Assembly (NCBI GenBank): GCA_003280575.1
Contig: QCEN01000009.1
Span: forward strand, 25-64,024
DNA from: Prochlorococcus sp. AG-355-P07
GTDB taxonomy: Bacteria; Cyanobacteriota; Cyanobacteriia; PCC-6307; Cyanobiaceae
Reading direction: 5' to 3'
DNA: 64,000 nucleotides
Shown piece by piece: positions 8,952 to 59,277 of the stretch. The notes beneath the pieces were generated by a model, which was not told where the DNA came from, searched no databases, and saw only the letters and a list, made by a program, of their open reading frames with translations. The number at the start of each line of letters is the position of its first letter. Within the stretch, counting starts at the first letter, position 1. The translations under genes were made by a program, and so were the position numbers.

Positions 8952-10367
8952 TTAACCCTGAACATCAAGCTTGTCGACAGTGTCAAACTCGAACTTAATT
9001 TCCTTCCAAGTTTCTAGAGCAATAGCTAATTCAGGACTATGCTTAGCAGCTTCCATAAGAATGTCTCTACTCTCTTTTTCGATTTCGCGACCAGCATTAC
9101 GTGCTTTTACGCAAGCTTCTAAAGCTACTCTGTTAGCTGCAGCTCCAGCAGCTGAACCCCATGGATGACCATGTGTTCCTCCACCGAACTGAAGGCAGGA
9201 ATCATCCCCAAAGATTGCTAAGAGTGCAGGCATATGCCAAACATGGATACCACCTGATGCGACTGCAAATACTCCAGGCATTGAACCCCAATCTTGATCA
9301 AAGAAGTTGCCTCTTGATCTATCTTCAGGAACAAATGACTCTCTTAAGTTGTCAATATAACCAAGAGTTGTTTGACGATCACCTTCTAGTTTTCCAACCA
9401 CGGTTCCAGTATGTAATTGGTCTCCTCCAGATAGTCTCAAACATTTTGCAAGAACTCTGAAGTGAATACCATGCTTTGGATGTCTATCAATAACAGCATG
9501 CATAGCTCTGTGAATATGCAGAAGCATGCCATTTTTACGACACCAATTAGCTAATCCAGTATTTGCAGTAAAACCACCAGTTATATAATCATGCATGATG
9601 ATTGGCATATCTAGCTCTTTTGCAAATTCAGCTCTTTCATAGAGTTCTTCAGGAGTGTTAGCAGTACAATTTAGATAGTGACCTTTAACTTCTCCAGTTT
9701 CTCGCTGAGCAAGCTTAACTGCTTCTGCAACAAACTCAAATCTTTCTCTCCAACGTTGGAATGGTTGAGAATTAATATTCTCATCATCCTTGGTTAAATC
9801 AAGACCGCCTCTAAGACACTCATATACAACTCGACCATAGTTTTTACCAGATAATCCTAATTTAGGTTTGATGGTACAACCAAGTAGAGGTCTTCCGTAT
9901 TTATTAAGTCGATCTCTTTCAACTACGATTCCATTTGGTGGACCACCGCAAGTTTTAATGAAAGCGATTGGGAATCTAATATCTTCTAGACGTAGATGTC
10001 TTAGAGCTTTAAATCCAAAAACATTTCCAACAAGAGATGTTAATACGTTAGTAATTGAGCCTTCTTCAAAAAGATCTAAAGGATATGCAATAAAAGCATA
10101 GAAGGCTTCAGGATCTCCAGGAACGTCTTCGATTCGATAACAACGTCCTTTATAAAATTCTAAATCTGTAAGTAACTCGGACCAAACTGTTGACCAAGTA
10201 CCTGTTGAAGATTCTGCGGCAACAGCTGCTGCAACTTCTTCTCTTGGAACACCTTCCTGACCTGTACATTTGAAACAGGCTAGTAAATCGGTGTCTAGGG
10301 GTACATATTCTGGAGTCCAGTAGGTATCTCTGTACTCCTTTACCCCTGCGTCATACTTCTTACTCAT
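8952..10367 (-). CDS. cbbL: RuBisCO large subunit (form IA)
   Basis: 471 aa, [23 protein letters not shown]...; catalytic [16 protein letters not shown] motif present. Confidence 0.98.
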
Positions 10368-10436: not shown

Positions 10437-10748
10437 TTAGTCCTTTTGACCAAGAAATTCACCGTTACCTAGAGCAGGTTCAACTTCTCTATGAGGACGA
10501 GCAATAATGTGAGCGGCAACTAAACCGTCACCAACTCTTTCGCAAGCATCAGCACCGGCTCTTACAGCTGCGTTAACTGCACCTGTTTCGCCTCTAACTA
10601 AAACTGTGACATAACCGCCACCGACGAATTCACGACCAATAAGGCGAACTTCTGCTGCCTTTGTCATTGCGTCTGCTGCTTCGATTGCAGGTACAAGTCC
10701 GCGTGTCTCGATCATGCCGAGAGCGATACCCATTGTTTCTGTAGCCAT
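10437..10748 (-). CDS. csoS1: Major carboxysome shell hexamer protein CsoS1 (BMC-H)
   Basis: 103 aa, MGIALGMIETRGLVPAIEAADAMTKAAEVRLIGRE...; canonical BMC domain. Confidence 0.97.
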   Translation of the reverse strand: MATETMGIALGMIETRGLVPAIEAADAMTKAAEVRLIGREFVGGGYVTVLVRGETGAVNAAVRAGADACERVGDGLVAAHIIARPHREVEPALGNGEFLGQKD

Positions 10749-10766
10749 TGTCTACTAAATACTAAA

Positions 10767-10780
10767 TGTGGAATGTTCAA
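10767..10780 (-). repeat. Copy A of the exact 14-nt word TTGAACATTCCACA (minus-strand reading), 19-32 nt upstream of the csoS1 ATG
   Basis: Plus strand reads tgtggaatgttcaa. Identical to the copies at 10998-11011 and 57798-57811. Confidence 0.9.
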
Positions 10781-10971
10781 TTCGAAGAATGCTTCATTAA
10801 GTACTTATAAGTCAAGCGTTTTCGACAAAATCTCCATTAATGTTTTTTCTATCATTCATAAGTTAAACTTATCACCCTTGGTACTATTGATATGTCAATA
10901 CTTATGCAAATTAGTTAGTGCATCAAAACATACTGTTGTGTTAAGAAAAAATTTACATTATGTTATTTCCG

Positions 10972-11028
10972 TACGAGACAGGCCCTGTCTATTCAGGTGT
11001 GGAATGTTCAACCTTTCCTGTCTCCGTA
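10972..11028. other. GC-rich stem-loop (GAGACAGG/CCTGTCTC, extendable to 11 bp with one bulge) whose 34-nt loop displays motif copy B
   Basis: 10975-10982 is the exact reverse complement of 11017-11024. TAC 10972-10974 pairs with GTA 11026-11028 across bulged C11025. A competing local hairpin AGACA/TGTCT lies at 10976-10990. Confidence 0.6.
10998..11011 (-). repeat. Copy B of TTGAACATTCCACA (minus-strand reading), 63-76 nt upstream of the Ham1 start
   Basis: Plus strand reads tgtggaatgttcaa. It shares a 15-mer (GTTGAACATTCCACA) with copy C. Confidence 0.9.
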
Positions 11029-11073
11029 TCAAGCTTTAAAGTAAGATAATATTCACAATATTTTTATATTATT

Positions 11074-11658
11074 TTGAACCTTCCAGTTCTAACTATTGCG
11101 AGTGGCAATCAAAGAAAGGTATCTGAAATTTCAGAAATGCTGGATGTTTTGTCTTTAAAGGTTGAGAAGCAACCAGAATATTTAAATGTCGAAGAGACTG
11201 GGAAGACATATTTTGAGAATGCTCTAATTAAAGCCAAGGCAGCTTCTCTAGAGACAAAAACTTGGGCATTGGCTGATGACTCTGGTCTTGAAGTAGATGT
11301 TTTAGATGGTCGACCAGGAATTTATTCTGCTCGATATGCCAAAAATAATGATGAGAAAATTAAAAAATTAATTAATGAACTTTCTGATAGTCCTTATAGA
11401 AGTGCAAGATTTATTAGTTGTATGGTTTTGTGCGATCCCTCAGGAAACTTAGTTAAAGATACAACAGGAATATGCTGGGGAGAAATTCTTAAGAACCCCA
11501 AATATCCTAATGGGGATTTCGAATCTATTTTTTGGGTTAAAGAAGCTAATTGTGTTTACGGTGAGCTCTCACAATCACAACTAAATAAATTAGGTAGTAG
11601 AGGTAAAGCTGCAAAAATTATGTCACCTTTTTTAAAAAAAGAGATAGGTTTAAGTTAA
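11074..11658 (+). CDS. rdgB: Ham1/RdgB family non-canonical purine NTP (dITP/XTP) pyrophosphatase
   Basis: 194 aa; LTIASGNQRKVSEI and the DDSGLEVD motif. TTG is the only canonical start in frame (in-frame stop at 11047-11049). Confidence 0.85.
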   Translation: MNLPVLTIASGNQRKVSEISEMLDVLSLKVEKQPEYLNVEETGKTYFENALIKAKAASLETKTWALADDSGLEVDVLDGRPGIYSARYAKNNDEKIKKLINELSDSPYRSARFISCMVLCDPSGNLVKDTTGICWGEILKNPKYPNGDFESIFWVKEANCVYGELSQSQLNKLGSRGKAAKIMSPFLKKEIGLS

Positions 11659-11680: not shown

Positions 11681-12451
11681 TCAATAATTTGAAATTTCTT
11701 CGATTGCTCTTATAGCAGCAGCTGCGGCTTCTTCTACATCTCCTTCTTTCCCAGCGAGAGTTAATCTACCAAAAGCGCCAACTGCCTTCACATCAACAAC
11801 AGTTATATTAGATGCTTTTTCAGCTTCATTTGCTGCTTTTAAAACATAACCAGCAGGTTCAGTTTCTAATATAAACATACTCATTCCAGATTGAATCATT
11901 GATCCACTTCTGTTTTGTCTATTTATTAAAACAGCATGATCTGGAGTAATCGCGCGAATGACTTCAGTCCAACTTGTTGAAGGTTTCGTTCTTTTTCTAA
12001 CCTCACTTCCAATAGCATCTAGAACAACATCTCCAGAATGTAAAACAGTGCTTTGATCTTTATGGTATAGAGCAAGAGAGCCAAATGCTCTTTCAACAAT
12101 CATTTGACCAAGTCTTACATTACTTGCTTTTAAGGCAATATCAGTGACTCTATGCACGGCCATCCCAGGCGAAACTTCCATCCAAAGGCATGAGTCTCCG
12201 GGTATAGGTAAAAAACCTCTACTAACCGTCCCCATATATGCAGCTAATTGAGGTTGAAGAGAATCCAAAAAAACATATGTTCTTAACTCAATTTGCTCAA
12301 CTTGACTTGCTTGTCTGGACACCAAAGACTTTTCTGAATCAGTTGTAATAAAACAGCTTGCACCACTGGCCTGAGATTGCACCTCAGATCCTGTGACAAG
12401 AGAACGGCCCTTTTTTCGTTCCCCTCTGTTTAAACTAGAAGTTGGTTCCAT
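11681..12451 (-). CDS. csoS1D: Tandem-BMC-domain carboxysome shell protein CsoS1D
   Basis: 256 aa with two degenerate BMC domains. Sequence and position (upstream of csoS1, separated by Ham1) match CsoS1D as described for Prochlorococcus. Confidence 0.85.
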
Positions 12452-55497: not shown

Positions 55498-57774
55498 TTA
55501 CAACTCTGCTGGATTAACATCTATTGTTAAAAAAACATTTTTTGGAATAAGTTTCCATAATATTGTTCTATCAGGTAAAGGTATCGTTGTTCCTTCAGGA
55601 CCATGTATTAATATCTGCCATCTAAATTTTTTACCGACTTTAGTAATTAAACTTGGAGCAGGGCCAATTAATTTCCAGTTCTTTTTCTCACAAAAATTGA
55701 GTAGATATTTTGCTAATTTTATTGCAATTGACTCAGTTAATTCATAATTTTCACCTGATAATTTAAGAAGGCAAATTGTGCAAAAAGGGAATAAATTAGC
55801 ATCTTTTCTCAATTTGGAGTTTTCAGTTAAGAATCTTTCATAATCTCTTTTCTGAAGATACGAAATTACCGGGTGGTTAGGTTTATATGTTTGAAAAATT
55901 ACTTTTCCTTTTTTTTGAGCCCTGCCTGCCCTGCCAGCTAGTTGCAAAAACAATTGTAATGATTTTTCTTCTGCCGAAATATCTGGACGATGAAGCAACC
56001 CATCTGCTGCAATAACTACTGAAAGAGTAATGTTGGGGATATCAATCCCTTTTGCCAACATTTGAGTTCCCACAAGAATATCAGCTTCACCTTTAGAAAA
56101 CTTTGAAAGAATATCTCTATGACCATCTTTCCCTGAGGTTGTATCTCTATCAAAGCGAAGTACTCTTAAGTCAGGAAATTCTTCATTTAAAAACTCTATT
56201 ACCCTTTGCGTACCTATTCCAAAAGGTTTAAAGGCGGTTGAATGGCAATCTGGGCAACGATTGATCAATCTTGATTTATGATCACACCAATGGCAGCGTA
56301 ACCATTTTTTCCCTTGTGAACCAAGATGCACTGATAAAGGAACATCACAGTTAGGGCAATTAATTAAATATCCGCAATTTCTACAACTTAAAAACCCACT
56401 GTGTCCCCTCCTAGGGATCAAAATTATCGCCTGCTCTTTTTTTATGCGTAGTTGAGGAAGCAATTGTAATAATTCATTGGAAAAAATTTTCATATTTCCT
56501 TTCTTGAACTCATCCCGCATATCAATAATTCTTATTTCAGGAATCTCATTACTGGATATCCTTTGAATCATTCTTACCAATTTAAAATTCTTTTCAAAAA
56601 TACACTTTTTCCAAGTCTTCATTGATGGGGTTGCACTCCCAAAAATTAACTTTGCTGAATTCCTTTTTACTATTTCAATAGCAATCTCTCTTGCGTCATA
56701 ACAAGGCATAGGACTATCTTGTTTATAAGAAACATCATGTTCTTCATCCATGATTATTAATCCTAGATTTTTCATTGGAAGAAAAACTGCGGACCTTGTT
56801 CCTATTACTATTAAAGGTTCATTGGCATTATTAATTCTCTTCCAAACCAAGGTCCTATGATTAGGAGAACAGTTACTATGGTATTCGTAAACAACATTAT
56901 TAAATCGCCGACTAAACCTATCAATAAGTTGAGGAATTAGTCCGATTTCTGGGGCTAGTATCAAACAACTTTTTTTCTTAAGAAGTTGATCTTCAGCAAT
57001 TCGCATATAAACTTCTGTTTTACCTGAACCTGTTTCGCCCCATAGAAGTAAAACATCTCCTGGTTTCATTGTTTGAAATTCTTGAAATGCAATTTTTTGC
57101 TCATTTGTAAGATTTGGTTTTTTAGTTGCAATATGATCATTTGAAAAGGAATTAAATTTAGTATTTATATTTTTTTTTCTTTTAGACTTAACAAGGTAAT
57201 TTTTACTAACCATTGAGCTAATTAAAGTATAATTAAAACCAGACTTTATTAATTCACTTTGCCAATTCCCTTTTTCAGGCAAAGTATTCATTAAAAAAAA
57301 TTCTTTTTTGGTTAATCCATTTTTCTTAATATCAAATCCTTTTTTAGTTTCAATCCATATTTGATCTTTTAAACCTTTTGAAAAATTCTTATATTTACCA
57401 ATCCAGCCAGGAGGAAATGCAGTTTTTAACATTTTTAAATTACTAACCATATAAAAAGAGGCTAGGGACTCTATACATTCTCTCCAAGAGTCATCAATTA
57501 TTTTTTTCTGCAAAATACTTTCAACAAACAAATATCTTATGCTTTTCCCTCGAGTAATATTTGCTGCATCATTATTGATTGTCGAAAAGTTTTTTTTTGA
57601 GATCACCAACCCATTCAATAATCTCCCTCTTAGTCTCACACTTACAATATCTCCAACTTCTGCCCCAAGATTATTTCCATCTAAATAGTAAAAACTTTCA
57701 TTACTACTACCTATATCAAGCAAAATTTCCAATTTGTAGGAGATATTTGATAACTGATTACTTGCCGGCTTCAA
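55498..57774 (-). CDS. priA: Primosomal protein N' (replication restart helicase PriA)
   Basis: 758 aa with Walker A GETGSGKT, DEEHD, and Cys-rich zinc motifs CRNCGY..CPNCD..CHWCD..CPDC. TTG start uncertain. Confidence 0.92.
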   Translation of the reverse strand: MKPASNQLSNISYKLEILLDIGSSNESFYYLDGNNLGAEVGDIVSVRLRGRLLNGLVISKKNFSTINNDAANITRGKSIRYLFVESILQKKIIDDSWRECIESLASFYMVSNLKMLKTAFPPGWIGKYKNFSKGLKDQIWIETKKGFDIKKNGLTKKEFFLMNTLPEKGNWQSELIKSGFNYTLISSMVSKNYLVKSKRKKNINTKFNSFSNDHIATKKPNLTNEQKIAFQEFQTMKPGDVLLLWGETGSGKTEVYMRIAEDQLLKKKSCLILAPEIGLIPQLIDRFSRRFNNVVYEYHSNCSPNHRTLVWKRINNANEPLIVIGTRSAVFLPMKNLGLIIMDEEHDVSYKQDSPMPCYDAREIAIEIVKRNSAKLIFGSATPSMKTWKKCIFEKNFKLVRMIQRISSNEIPEIRIIDMRDEFKKGNMKIFSNELLQLLPQLRIKKEQAIILIPRRGHSGFLSCRNCGYLINCPNCDVPLSVHLGSQGKKWLRCHWCDHKSRLINRCPDCHSTAFKPFGIGTQRVIEFLNEEFPDLRVLRFDRDTTSGKDGHRDILSKFSKGEADILVGTQMLAKGIDIPNITLSVVIAADGLLHRPDISAEEKSLQLFLQLAGRAGRAQKKGKVIFQTYKPNHPVISYLQKRDYERFLTENSKLRKDANLFPFCTICLLKLSGENYELTESIAIKLAKYLLNFCEKKNWKLIGPAPSLITKVGKKFRWQILIHGPEGTTIPLPDRTILWKLIPKNVFLTIDVNPAEL

Positions 57775-57797
57775 AACTTTTTCTTAATATTGGATTG

Positions 57798-57811
57798 TTG
57801 AACATTCCACA
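57798..57811 (+). repeat. Copy C of TTGAACATTCCACA (plus-strand reading) in the priA/rpoD divergent intergenic region
   Basis: Exact 14-mer, and a 15-mer with the preceding G shared with copy B. A 9-nt spacer then leads to the half-similar TTGCACATT at 57821-57829. Confidence 0.9.
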
Positions 57812-58095
57812 AAGTGTTTTTTGCACATTGTAAGTATCCTGCTCTTAAGGGAGACATGAAGCTTTGATCATTGACTGAAAATTCAAAATGATCTGCCTGT
57901 CTGAGAAATCCCAAGACTTTTTACTTTAGGTAATCTATAGCACTATTTAAATTTTTCAACAATTTAGAAAACTTTTCTATTTCTCATTTTGTGAAAAAGT
58001 TTTTTAAGCATTAAGGGTAACTTTACTACTAATTGTTCAAATTAACCCTAAATAAAATTTTATCTAGTTAAATTCACCTTAGATAGGAGTCAATT

Positions 58096-59277
58096 ATGTG
58101 TCCAGTCGCAGCAGAATCAAAAAATTCCAAGTCTAGTTCAAAAAAAAAGATCAATAAAAAAATTAATCCAAATTTAGAAACAGTAGTTGAAGGAGATGGT
58201 ATTAAAAATAGTCAAAATTCGCAGACATCTTCCGAGTTAAACGAAAGCAGTATTGAAAATAATAATGAATTTAATGATTCTGAAGAAGAAGATAAAGGGC
58301 TTGGGAATATAAAGCTTGGCCCAAAAGGTATCTACACTGAAGATTCAATAAGAGTTTATCTCCAAGAAATCGGAAGAATTAGACTTTTAAGACCAGATGA
58401 AGAAATTGAACTTGCAAGAAAAATTGCTGATTTACTGCAATTAGAAGAATTAGCAACTCAATATGAGTCAGAAAAAGGGCATTTCCCATCAGTAAGAGAA
58501 TGGGCCGAGTTAATAGATATGCCTCTTTCCAAATTTAGAAGAAGACTTCTTTTAGGGAGGAGAGCTAAAGAAAAAATGGTTCAATCAAATTTAAGATTAG
58601 TTGTTTCCATTGCAAAAAAATATATGAATAGAGGTTTATCATTTCAAGATTTAATCCAAGAAGGAAGTTTGGGTCTAATTAGGGCCGCGGAAAAATTTGA
58701 CCATGAAAAAGGTTATAAGTTCTCTACATACGCGACTTGGTGGATTCGACAAGCCATTACAAGAGCAATTGCGGATCAAAGTAGAACTATTAGATTGCCA
58801 GTTCACTTATACGAGACAATATCCAGAATTAAAAAAACCACAAAAGTTCTTAGCCAAGAATTTGGCAGGAAGCCTAGTGAAGAAGAAATCGCTGAAAGTA
58901 TGGAAATGACAATTGAAAAATTAAGATTTATAGCTAAAAGTGCGCAACTTCCTATTTCTTTAGAAACTCCAATTGGGAAAGAAGAAGACTCAAGACTTGG
59001 AGACTTTATAGAGGCTGATATAGAAAATCCAGAGCAAGATGTTTCTAAAACTTTATTAAGAGAAGATTTGGAAGGAGTATTAGCCACTTTAAGTCCGAGA
59101 GAAAGAGATGTTCTCAGATTGAGATATGGGATTGATGATGGAAGAATGAAAACTCTTGAAGAAATTGGCCAGATTTTTGATGTGACAAGAGAAAGAATTA
59201 GACAAATAGAGGCAAAAGCCCTAAGAAAACTTAGACATCCAAATCGAAATGGGGTTTTAAAAGAATATATAAAATAA
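58096..59277 (+). CDS. rpoD: Principal (group 1) RNA polymerase sigma factor
   Basis: 393 aa with regions 1.2-4.2 recognisable ([63 protein letters not shown]). Confidence 0.95.

Follow-up and report, generated by a model that had tools for sequence, protein, structure and literature searches.

The csoS1-Ham1 locus and its repeated word

The csoS1-rbcL operon and the Ham1/rdgB gene are divergent neighbors in the window, the 64-kb stretch of Prochlorococcus DNA analyzed here, and the spacer between them carries two exact copies of a 14-nt word, TTGAACATTCCACA (Table 1). In Prochlorococcus and marine Synechococcus, to which a large share of ocean carbon fixation is due, Rubisco and the carboxysome are products of the cso operon, and to our knowledge its control in these regulator-poor picocyanobacterial genomes is poorly known. 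The word reads on the minus strand at copies A and B and on the plus strand at copy C. Copy C lies between two genes: priA, on the minus strand and thus opposite to the copy, begins with a TTG at 57774, 24 nt away, whereas rpoD, for the primary sigma factor, has its ATG at 58096 on the plus strand, 285 nt downstream of the copy. Every coordinate reported in the first-pass annotation holds, including the intergenic location of all three copies, the 19 nt between the end of copy A and the csoS1 ATG (A at 10748) and the placement of copy B 63-76 nt upstream of the Ham1 TTG at 11074. The Ham1 start itself, TTGAACCTTCCA, matches the word's first 12 letters at all but one position.

Table 1. Positions of the word copies and of the control elements around them (window coordinates; putative elements are named as such)
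Feature	Positions	Strand	Remarks
Copy A	10767..10780	-	TTG precedes the putative csoS1 +1; the csoS1-rbcL operon mRNA would begin with AACATTCCACA
Putative csoS1 5' UTR	10749..10778	-	29-30 nt; start site transferred from MED4 and CC9605
Putative csoS1 promoter	10786..10815	-	-35-like TTGACT (10815-10810), 18-nt spacer, -10-like CATTCT (10791-10786)
Putative distal Ham1 promoter, -10-like TATGTT	10959..10964	+	start would be expected at 10972-10974
5' domain of the long (distal-start) Ham1 leader	10973..11024	+	three-way junction; fold and covariation
P1	10975-10982 with 11017-11024	+	covarying closing stem
P2	10984-10987 with 10994-10997	+	part of the three-way junction
Copy B as it would be transcribed, UGUGGAAUGUUCAA	10998..11011	+	seed complementary to the csoS1 mRNA 5' end
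Loop/junction holding copy B	10998-11016	+	part of the three-way junction
Ham1 translation start, UUGAACCUUCCA	11074..11085	+	in high-light (HL) Prochlorococcus, similar to the csoS1 5' end and a potential cis partner of the seed
Copy C	57798..57811	+	priA-rpoD spacer; exact match

Apart from runs of A and T, TTGAACATTCCACA is the sole 14-mer with three or more copies in the window, and variants of it with one or two mismatches occur nowhere in the window. The figure of about 10^-3 that had been estimated for one given 14-mer is of about the right size but applies to a word picked post hoc. Shuffled windows yielded at least three matches with no more than two mismatches in 4 of 100 trials, so that the window alone suggests, without deciding, that the recurrence is not accidental. 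The question is settled by the comparative data, as copies A and B are kept across genomes: footprinting of the csoS1-Ham1 spacers places them at fixed positions in 43 HL loci and recovers the core across genera, and both persist from Prochlorococcus at 31% GC to Synechococcus and Cyanobium loci at ~60% GC. Copy C, too, is retained in related HL contigs (L231, L168 and L177), of which L231 was fetched without using the word. Recurrence by chance, with no common function, is thus extremely improbable and for copies A and B effectively refuted, which upholds the initial view of a non-random word in the csoS1/Ham1 control region.

Around the three copies the flanking sequences are unrelated, and the shared sequence is confined to the 14 letters, which rules out a larger repeat or a mobile element. 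No intrinsic terminator-like site, that is, a GC stem followed by a U run, was found. Symmetry within the word is limited to GAAnnTTC, with no dyad, direct-repeat or helical-repeat architecture; taken with their flanks, copies B and C give palindromes and copy A does not, and none is consistent between copies. Copy C is specific to HL genomes of the window's type. Other clades have a different hairpin at its position, and its own folding, on either strand, is no better than that of shuffled sequences. Beyond the window, a census of the exact 14-mer in metagenome contigs returned 120 matches, nearly all of them chance occurrences in unrelated organisms; the only Prochlorococcus contexts to recur were the three already known. 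A search of phage records and viral contigs for a phage-borne copy gave no match to the Ham1 leader, and the 11 matches there to the Synechococcus-type 16-mer lie in unrelated contexts.

A conserved putative promoter and mRNA 5' end at copy A

Of 88 alpha-cyanobacterial loci, 82 have the core GAACATTCCA at -45 to -12, equally far upstream of csoS1. According to published start-site maps, csoS1 starts at 518681(+) in MED4, with 90,415 reads, and at 716414(+) in Synechococcus CC9605, the latter at a distance of 412 nt from rbcL; across marine Synechococcus loci, 409-415 nt separate the G of copy A from the downstream rbcL. Both starts fall on the G or A of copy A, so the operon mRNA would begin (G)AACAUUCCACA. 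The csoS1 and Ham1 starts given here for the present strain are transfers from these relatives, for MED4 by distances only, and the MED4 figure of 44 nt upstream is consistent only with PMM0549 being annotated from Met6. The start-site mapping suggested at the outset thus puts copy A at the csoS1 +1, in strains other than this one.

Copy A would span -3 to +11 of the putative csoS1 promoter, while copy B lies ~230 bp upstream of the csoS1 start. A consensus promoter scan detected neither the csoS1 nor the Ham1 promoter. The -10-like element of csoS1 is non-canonical and takes the form CAnnGT in other clades. From HL Prochlorococcus to Cyanobium, CTTGAC and CAnnGT hardly change, if at all, and their spacing to GAAC is constant, in the arrangement CTTGAC-N18-CAnnGT-N7, while the 5 nt immediately before the copy A core vary. 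As the alignments indicate, conservation of copy A starts exactly at the csoS1 +1 and the core word is ancient. Nucleotides 1-10 of the csoS1 mRNA are predicted to be single-stranded, with unpaired probabilities of 0.7-1.0. A same-sense RNA motif in a long csoS1 5' UTR was considered and rejected, since the csoS1 start is at copy A and the MED4 map has no csoS1-sense start upstream of copy B.

A structured Ham1 leader that would present copy B

Copy B would be transcribed from the opposite strand, and as RNA the two copies would therefore be complementary and not identical. Ham1 starts in MED4 are at 518401(-) and at 518485(-), the latter 102 nt upstream of the gene, and the CC9605 start is at 716220(-), which sets the divergent csoS1 and Ham1 starts 194-196 nt apart in the two strains. 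From this conserved spacing we infer the distal Ham1 start in the window; with the same spacing the Ham1 leader would begin 0-2 nt before P1 in seven lineages. The -10-like sequence block of the distal promoter is invariant in HL, and according to the published starts in MED4 and CC9605 the orthologous element is covered by a Ham1-sense transcript.

The leader folds into a three-way junction that was recovered in every lineage examined. In its closing stem P1, 92% of cells are paired, seven of the eight pairs show two-sided changes and the covariation score is 0.907 compared to 0.25 in shuffles, all counted on hand-registered strands, a procedure that favors the structure; MAFFT combined with RNAalifold was unusable because length variation misaligns the stems. 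P2 shows a compensatory change, CCUGC/GCAGG. At the interior P1 positions 4-6, G-U pairs are formed by the Ham1-sense strand only. Within the loop, AAUGUUCA has an unpaired probability of 0.9-1.0 in low-light Prochlorococcus and Synechococcus and a lower one in HL, in which a weak 4-bp hairpin partly closes the seed. Rfam covariance models gave no match at the gathering score in the 64-kb window, whether for Yfr1, Yfr2/Cyano-1, other cyanobacterial motifs or riboswitches, and around the word copies only chance-level matches appeared at E <= 10.

Copy B is confined to loci that have Ham1 as the divergent neighbor of csoS1: it was seen in HL and low-light Prochlorococcus, in several marine Synechococcus and at a single Cyanobium-like locus, and some Ham1-adjacent loci lack it (L048, L051, L063 and L066). 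In Cyanobium, sbtA-sbtB lies between Ham1 and csoS1, copy A is perfectly conserved and copy B is missing near either gene; no word motif accompanies Ham1 at the Cyanobium loci, owing to the insertion of sbtA-sbtB. Since copy A is kept where copy B is missing, pairing with the Ham1 leader cannot be the primary constraint on it, and some further reader of copy A must exist to recognize GAACAUUCCA in lineages without copy B.

The seed also has a potential partner in cis. The first-pass annotation had proposed that 11001-11011 could pair with 11074-11084 and bury the Ham1 TTG. In the window 10 of these 11 pairs can form, and in HL the potential is supported: at least 9 of 11 are kept in 42 of 43 loci despite amino-acid changes, the UUG falls within a predicted duplex of -9 to -20.6 kcal/mol in 13 of 14 start-region variants, and duplex z-scores run from -1.3 to -5.8. 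Low-light Prochlorococcus and Synechococcus show no such pairing (z about 0), and the helix is weak and not part of the minimum-free-energy fold. The proposed covariation analysis of this pairing revealed no true covariation, because the loop is invariant.

Probable complementarity between the csoS1 and Ham1 messages

The Ham1 leader loop can form 12-16 contiguous pairs with the csoS1 mRNA, counted from its nucleotide 1, and a second block of pairing spans the csoS1 ribosome-binding region and AUG. Predicted csoS1-leader duplexes reach -30 to -47 kcal/mol compared to -18 to -29 for shuffled sequences, the cofold minimum is intermolecular in 12 of 12 lineages, and both partners are predicted to be accessible, the seed less so in HL. 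Pairing is shorter, with merely 9-10 contiguous pairs, or interrupted by an internal mismatch in L049, L050, L057 and MIT 0916/1012.

The two copies also change together. About four independent lineage-specific variants are found in both A and B of the same genome: CATCCC (L049 and L050), CCAT (L053 and L054), CCACCCCCT (L064) and CACA (HL). Identity between cognate copies exceeds that in all 100,000 permutations (p < 1e-5, with lineages that are not independent of one another). The boundary of the shared word also varies: the word begins with the G in Synechococcus loci and in most of those from low-light Prochlorococcus, takes in one preceding base (T) in MIT 0916/1012, and begins at TTG in HL.

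Sequence conservation, a covarying fold, matched variants within genomes and mapped starts in two related organisms are the observations on which the interpretation is built. They lean modestly towards reading the word as an RNA-RNA complementarity, through which the divergent, non-overlapping csoS1 and Ham1 transcripts are predicted to pair as antisense partners. Judged by sequence, the two messages can probably pair, in a link that is conserved across marine picocyanobacteria. The earlier suggestion of an sRNA target comes close, in that the csoS1 5' end is the predicted target of pairing; its partner, however, would be the leader of another mRNA, 200 nt away in the DNA.

Alternative explanations

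Rather than RNA, the word could be read as DNA. A putative transcription factor might bind GAACATTCCAC at the csoS1 start as its main site and at an auxiliary site 231 bp upstream, acting by DNA looping or by blocking the long Ham1 transcript, with copy C as the third site of a regulon. This shared operator, raised already in the first-pass annotation, fits promoter control by its position: copy A overlaps +1, the classic place for a repressor, the copies are direct repeats at the DNA level, and copy C is intergenic beside another promoter region. The dispensability of the upstream copy in several lineages resembles that of many auxiliary operators, and the persistence of copy A without copy B implies that something else reads it. 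Yet the word lacks the dyad or helical-repeat architecture of an operator beyond GAAnnTTC, and conservation of copy A sets in exactly at +1, with variable sequence in the 5 bp before it. The loop that holds copy B belongs to a covarying RNA fold, for which a DNA site would have no need, and matched lineage changes in A and B would call for repeated shifts in factor specificity. In line with the annotation's remark on the word itself, neither the word nor its conserved flanks contain an NtcA (GTA-N8-TAC), LexA, HLR1/RpaB or Pho consensus box, and CGRE1 does not match either. A DNA operator is on these grounds the weaker reading and rather unlikely.

The Ham1 leader might instead act in cis only, by sequestering its start codon or sensing a ligand, with the csoS1 5' end kept separately for mRNA stability, translation or promoter escape and the likeness of the two left over from an old duplication of the csoS1 promoter and UTR. 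Seed-to-start pairing is indeed kept across the HL start-region variants, copy A is conserved without copy B, and, like some riboswitches, the leader has a three-way junction at its 5' end. The region after copy B even resembles an internally deleted csoS1 UTR, including GGCAAtGGC around the AUG, which fits a duplication. The cis pairing, however, is confined to HL and absent from the minimum-free-energy fold, and no Rfam family matches. Moreover, a remnant free of selection would have lost its identity with copy A over a shift from ~60% to 31% GC, and it would not follow the lineage-specific changes of copy A. Islands of identity of 12-16 nt, being below the minimal homology that RecA needs, are too short for efficient gene conversion. 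A leader acting exclusively in cis is accordingly quite improbable, and the preferred interpretation is still pairing between the two messages.

Relation to known regulatory systems

Leaders that work in trans have precedents. Listeria SreA is a riboswitch element that also works in trans as an antisense regulator of prfA; as proposed here, part of one gene's cis leader base-pairs with the 5' UTR of a second mRNA. Unlike SreA and prfA, the present partners are divergent neighbors whose complementarity arises from a direct DNA repeat, the 'target' is by far the more abundant partner and no ligand is known. The rpoS leader with DsrA forms an anti-antisense switch, which the HL Ham1 start resembles in that an upstream leader segment can sequester it and a better-matching trans RNA could displace that segment. 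The displacer here would be the 5' end of an operon mRNA and not a dedicated sRNA, and the cis helix is weak and limited to HL. In the lac system, O1 and O3 serve as main and auxiliary operators with DNA looping; likewise, the present locus has a pair of identical sites separated by a few hundred bp, of which one overlaps a start and the distal one is dispensable in some lineages. In contrast to lac, the site here has no symmetry or known binder, and its distal copy lies within a covarying RNA structure.

Two picocyanobacterial systems are closer in phylogeny. The csoS1 mRNA is a documented sRNA target in MED4, where the trans-acting, base-pairing sRNA Yfr10 targets it (Lambrecht et al. 2019, PMC6778093). 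As with Yfr10, a short exposed seed in a structured RNA is predicted to pair with the csoS1 mRNA, but the seed resides in the 5' leader of the protein-coding Ham1 mRNA, encoded ~200 nt away on the opposite strand. It also reads GUGGAAUGUUC, which is not the Yfr1/Yfr10 motif, and its target is the extreme 5' end of the mRNA. CGRE1, the operator of the GntR-family regulator PlmA/PMM1637 at the yfr2 promoters of picocyanobacteria, consists of a palindrome of 21-22 nt between GTTA/GTTG flanks and lies ~55 nt upstream of the start (PMC6191309). It was considered as a candidate because it, too, is a short conserved intergenic word common to Prochlorococcus and marine Synechococcus that emerged from promoter alignment; it misfits in sequence and architecture, as the present word is unrelated, non-palindromic and situated at +1 and inside an RNA loop.

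A possible link between carbon fixation and nucleotide-pool sanitation

How might such a pairing work? Most likely it would act as an antisense switch linking two mRNAs. The Ham1 leader loop would engage the first 12-16 nt of the csoS1 mRNA, and the second block would extend the duplex across the csoS1 ribosome-binding region and AUG. In HL, the loop could alternatively pair in cis with the region of the Ham1 UUG start, given the likeness of this region to the csoS1 5' end, and the csoS1 mRNA would displace the loop from there. In the MED4 libraries that contain both, csoS1 start-site reads exceed those of Ham1 by ~9-fold to ~400-fold, which argues against control of csoS1 by the leader. Given the far greater abundance of the csoS1 mRNA, the favored direction is that it would titrate the Ham1 leader and make Ham1 translation dependent on cso expression. 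The reverse, in which the leader would damp csoS1 translation or stability when cso transcription is low, is also conceivable. From the alignments, folds and relatives' maps we infer the start sites of this strain, a duplex in vivo and the direction and effect of regulation.

The present analysis locates a conserved, putative cso promoter and the invariant 5' end of its mRNA, and it describes a structured Ham1 leader into which the complement of that end is built. No description of this complementarity was found in the literature searched or in Rfam, and no paper found in that search has the word in connection with cyanobacteria. The pairing, if real, would be a clear example of neighboring, non-overlapping mRNAs that cross-regulate one another via a direct DNA repeat read from opposite strands.

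A bolder extension, speculative and probably not correct in full, would make the 5' end of the csoS1-rbcL mRNA, the cell's most abundant operon message, a regulator in trans, an mRNA acting as an sRNA, of a dedicated receptor loop on Ham1/rdgB, with a second site in the priA-rpoD spacer in HL genomes of the window's type. If true, the expression of genes for nucleotide-pool sanitation and for replication and transcription would be tied to that of carbon fixation in the ocean's dominant phototrophs.

The repeated word and its copies

The 14-nt word TTGAACATTCCACA occurs three times in the window, as copy A upstream of csoS1, copy B in the Ham1 leader and copy C in the priA-rpoD spacer; re-locating these positions confirmed all the distances given in the first-pass annotation. 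With A/T runs set aside, it is the sole 14-mer with three or more copies, and no variant with one or two mismatches lies elsewhere in the 64 kb. Three or more matches at up to two mismatches were reached in 4 of 100 shuffles, so the window taken alone is only suggestive. A larger repeat was rejected because the three copies have unrelated flanks. NtcA, LexA, HLR1 and Pho boxes were rejected since their consensus sequences are not contained in the word, as was CGRE1, which does not match it. Scans of the window and of the regions around the copies gave no Rfam family match, and the word was not found in the searchable cyanobacterial literature. An 88-aa ORF at 10773-11039 (+) covers the whole csoS1-Ham1 spacer with copies A and B; it is almost certainly spurious, because the conservation of the spacer follows promoter and leader elements, not a coding sequence.

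Copies of the word, neighbouring genes and predicted RNA elements
Feature	Position	Strand	Remark
rbcL	8952-10367	-	
csoS1	10437-10748	-	
Copy A, TTGAACATTCCACA	10767-10780	-	exact match
P1 stem	10975-10982 with 11017-11024	+ (Ham1-sense)	predicted fold
P2 hairpin	10984-10997	+ (Ham1-sense)	predicted fold; follows P1 5' strand
Loop/junction holding word	10998-11016	+ (Ham1-sense)	predicted fold
Copy B, TTGAACATTCCACA	10998-11011	-	exact match
Ham1/rdgB	11074-11658	+	TTG start
csoS1D	11681-12451	-	
priA	55498-57774	-	TTG start
Copy C, TTGAACATTCCACA	57798-57811	+	exact match
rpoD	58096-59277	+	primary sigma factor

Copy A and the 5' end of csoS1 mRNA

Comparison loci were sampled via the exact CsoS1 protein (10) and via a genome scan (80). 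The csoS1-Ham1 spacer is 94% identical throughout in high-light (HL) Prochlorococcus, where copy B is invariant and copy A varies in its first two letters alone. The core GAACATTCCA stands 29-33 nt ahead of the csoS1 ATG in 82 of 88 loci, ranging from Prochlorococcus of 31% GC to freshwater Cyanobium of 60-66% GC. Copy A is thus ancient, with GAACATTCCACCCCTT as the ancestral form. Upstream lie an invariant CTTGAC, 18 nt, a non-canonical CAnnGT, 7-8 variable nt and GAAC, so that conservation picks up again exactly at G.

This conserved, non-canonical CAnnGT is the -10-like element of the highly expressed cso promoter (window 10786-10791; CATTCT in HL), separated from TTGAC by an 18-nt spacer. 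Its form suggests that the promoter needs an activator or a particular sigma factor. A palindrome, ATAAGT-TTA-ACTTAT (10848-10862; ancestral form TGATAAGC-N3-GCTTATCA), has its centre some 77 nt ahead of the inferred csoS1 start, and its core does not vary between Prochlorococcus and Cyanobium. Its T-N11-A / TNA-N7-TNA pattern is typical of LysR-type (CbbR/RbcR-like) sites, and its position is typical for an activator.

Start sites published for other strains locate the 5' end of the mRNA. The csoS1 start of Synechococcus CC9605, 716414(+), lies 412 nt ahead of rbcL (Red Sea mdRNA-seq), and the copy A G lies 409-415 nt ahead of rbcL in marine Synechococcus loci, which puts the start on this G within about 3 nt. 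For strain MED4, Read et al. (2017, Tables S8-S11) list a start at 518681(+), with 90,415 reads and 44 nt ahead of PMM0549. This distance would fit if PMM0549 were annotated from Met6, the second Met, 15 nt past the true start (29 + 15 = 44); the annotated start is probably too far downstream by that amount, and the Met6 reading also brings the MED4 spacer, reported as 341 nt, to 326 nt, matching other HL genomes. Transfer of both maps to the window predicts a csoS1 mRNA that begins at 10778/10777 with (G)AACAUUCCACA.

A structured Ham1 leader around copy B

In MED4 (Read et al. 2017), Ham1-sense starts lie 18 and 102 nt ahead of Ham1, and the tables list none in the csoS1 sense upstream of copy B; in CC9605 (Red Sea mdRNA-seq), a Ham1 start lies at 716220(-). 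Distal Ham1 and csoS1 starts are separated by 196 nt in MED4 and 194 nt in CC9605, and with this spacing the leader starts 0-2 nt ahead of P1 in the window, MIT 0916 and comparison loci L052, L054, L058, L049 and L056.

Copy B is predicted to belong to a structured RNA transcribed from the strand opposite to csoS1. P1 is fully replaced between lineages (GAGACAGG/CCUGUCUC, GCAGCGGU/ACCGCUGC, GGAGCCGG/CCGGCUCC, CCUGAA/UUCAGG), with two-sided changes in 7 of 8 pairs. Counted on hand-registered strands, 92% of P1 cells are paired versus 58% in shuffles, the covariation score is 0.907 versus 0.25, and slid registers give only 40-51% pairing. P2 has a compensatory variant, CCUGC/GCAGG, and only on the Ham1-sense strand does the interior of P1 contain G-U pairs.

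Every copy B lies at a locus where csoS1 and Ham1 are divergent neighbours. In Cyanobium, sbtA-sbtB separate the two genes, copy A is intact, and no copy B was found near csoS1 or Ham1 in the loci examined. In the freshwater Cyanobium loci (L220-L230, L060-L090) these inserted bicarbonate transporter genes leave Ham1 adjoining csoS1D, and the csoS1 promoter and 5' UTR stand intact downstream of the sbtB terminator hairpin. The region downstream of copy B resembles a csoS1 UTR copy with an internal deletion, which suggests an origin by duplication.

Complementarity of csoS1 mRNA and the Ham1 leader

Copies A and B are direct repeats on DNA yet are transcribed divergently, so in the Ham1 leader the word reads UGUGGAAUGUUCAA, complementary to the opening bases of csoS1 mRNA. 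The shared word is 9-16 nt long across lineages. Its first letter is the G in Synechococcus and in the majority of low-light Prochlorococcus loci, and the preceding T in MIT 0916/1012; in HL it opens with TTG. Some variants are lineage-specific and stand in both copies of one genome: CATCCC in loci L049 and L050, CCAT in L053 and L054, CCACCCCCT in L064 and CACA in HL. Within-genome A/B identity exceeds that in all 100,000 permutations, a significance overstated by the non-independence of lineages.

Predicted csoS1-leader duplexes begin at mRNA nt 1, and a second block spans the csoS1 ribosome-binding region and AUG (UGUCUA:UAGACA in HL, GCCUUGCC:GGCAAUGGC in Synechococcus). Their energies are -30 to -47 kcal/mol versus -18 to -29 for shuffles, the duplex is the cofold minimum in 12 of 12 lineages tested, and both csoS1 mRNA nt 1-10 and the loop AAUGUUCA are predicted to be unpaired.

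The first-pass annotation had proposed that the loop could pair with the Ham1 TTG start. This is plausible as an HL-specific addition: of the 11 pairs between start region and loop, 9 or more are preserved in 42 of 43 HL loci despite amino-acid changes, one HL locus has an exact 12-mer, UUGAAUAUUCCCACC in L038 and L043 pairs along its full length, and in 13 of 14 HL variants the UUG lies within a predicted duplex (-9 to -20.6 kcal/mol; z-scores -1.3 to -5.8). It does not extend to low-light Prochlorococcus or Synechococcus, where start-region pairing gave no signal (z about 0), and the helix is absent from the minimum-free-energy fold of the leader. In HL, the loop could have either of two partners: the Ham1 start, in cis, or the csoS1 5' end, which matches it better, in trans. 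Nearly all Ham1 genes in the Prochlorococcus and marine Synechococcus loci (L001-L058) start with TTG, as does the longest priA ORF in the window (57774).

Copy C and the priA-rpoD spacer

Copy C is exact in the related HL contigs L231 (fetched without use of the word), L168 and L177; other clades have a different hairpin at its position, with TAAnnT 7-9 nt upstream in each clade. Since the chance of a third copy in 64 kb is about 10^-3, it is probably related to copies A and B. Transcription in the rpoD sense would yield a second RNA starting close to UUGAACAUUCCACA, and in the priA sense a second leader with an anti-csoS1 seed 24 nt ahead of the priA UUG. Neither strand of the copy C region folds better than shuffles.

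The spacer as a whole (57775-58095; loci L091-L099 and L231-L233) holds blocks GGGAAGAC..GAAGCT and GTCTGAGAAAGCCCCTGAC, conserved from HL Prochlorococcus to Cyanobium and accompanied by clade-specific hairpins. It has no Rfam match, and the sole start in the MED4 tables here is that of rpoD, 14 nt upstream of the ATG. A leader or small RNA that has yet to be described may lie here, ahead of the primary sigma factor gene.

A possible antisense switch

A DNA operator is a possible reading of the word, but the word has no symmetry, copy A conservation is bounded at +1 and an RNA fold surrounds copy B. The favoured reading is an antisense switch between the csoS1 and Ham1 mRNAs. Because csoS1 start-site reads exceed those of Ham1 by about 9-fold to about 400-fold in the MED4 libraries listing both, csoS1 mRNA acting on the Ham1 leader would be the more plausible direction. 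Only one library, that with a huge csoS1 signal (Table S8), lacks the distal Ham1 start; those in which csoS1 is low or unlisted (Tables S9-S11) contain it, although this inverse listing across four libraries is only a hint. The chief difficulty for the switch is that copy A is also conserved without copy B, in Cyanobium and in loci L048, L051, L063 and L066; GAACAUUCCA must have another reader, for which a protein, another RNA or an initial-transcribed-sequence effect are candidates.

csoS1 is a known target of the sRNA Yfr10 (PMC6778093), which acts via a motif different from the word, and carboxysome-locus papers name Ham1 merely as a neighbour. The favoured reading would be a case of RNA regulation by base pairing, with an mRNA leader and the mRNA of a neighbouring operon as partners.
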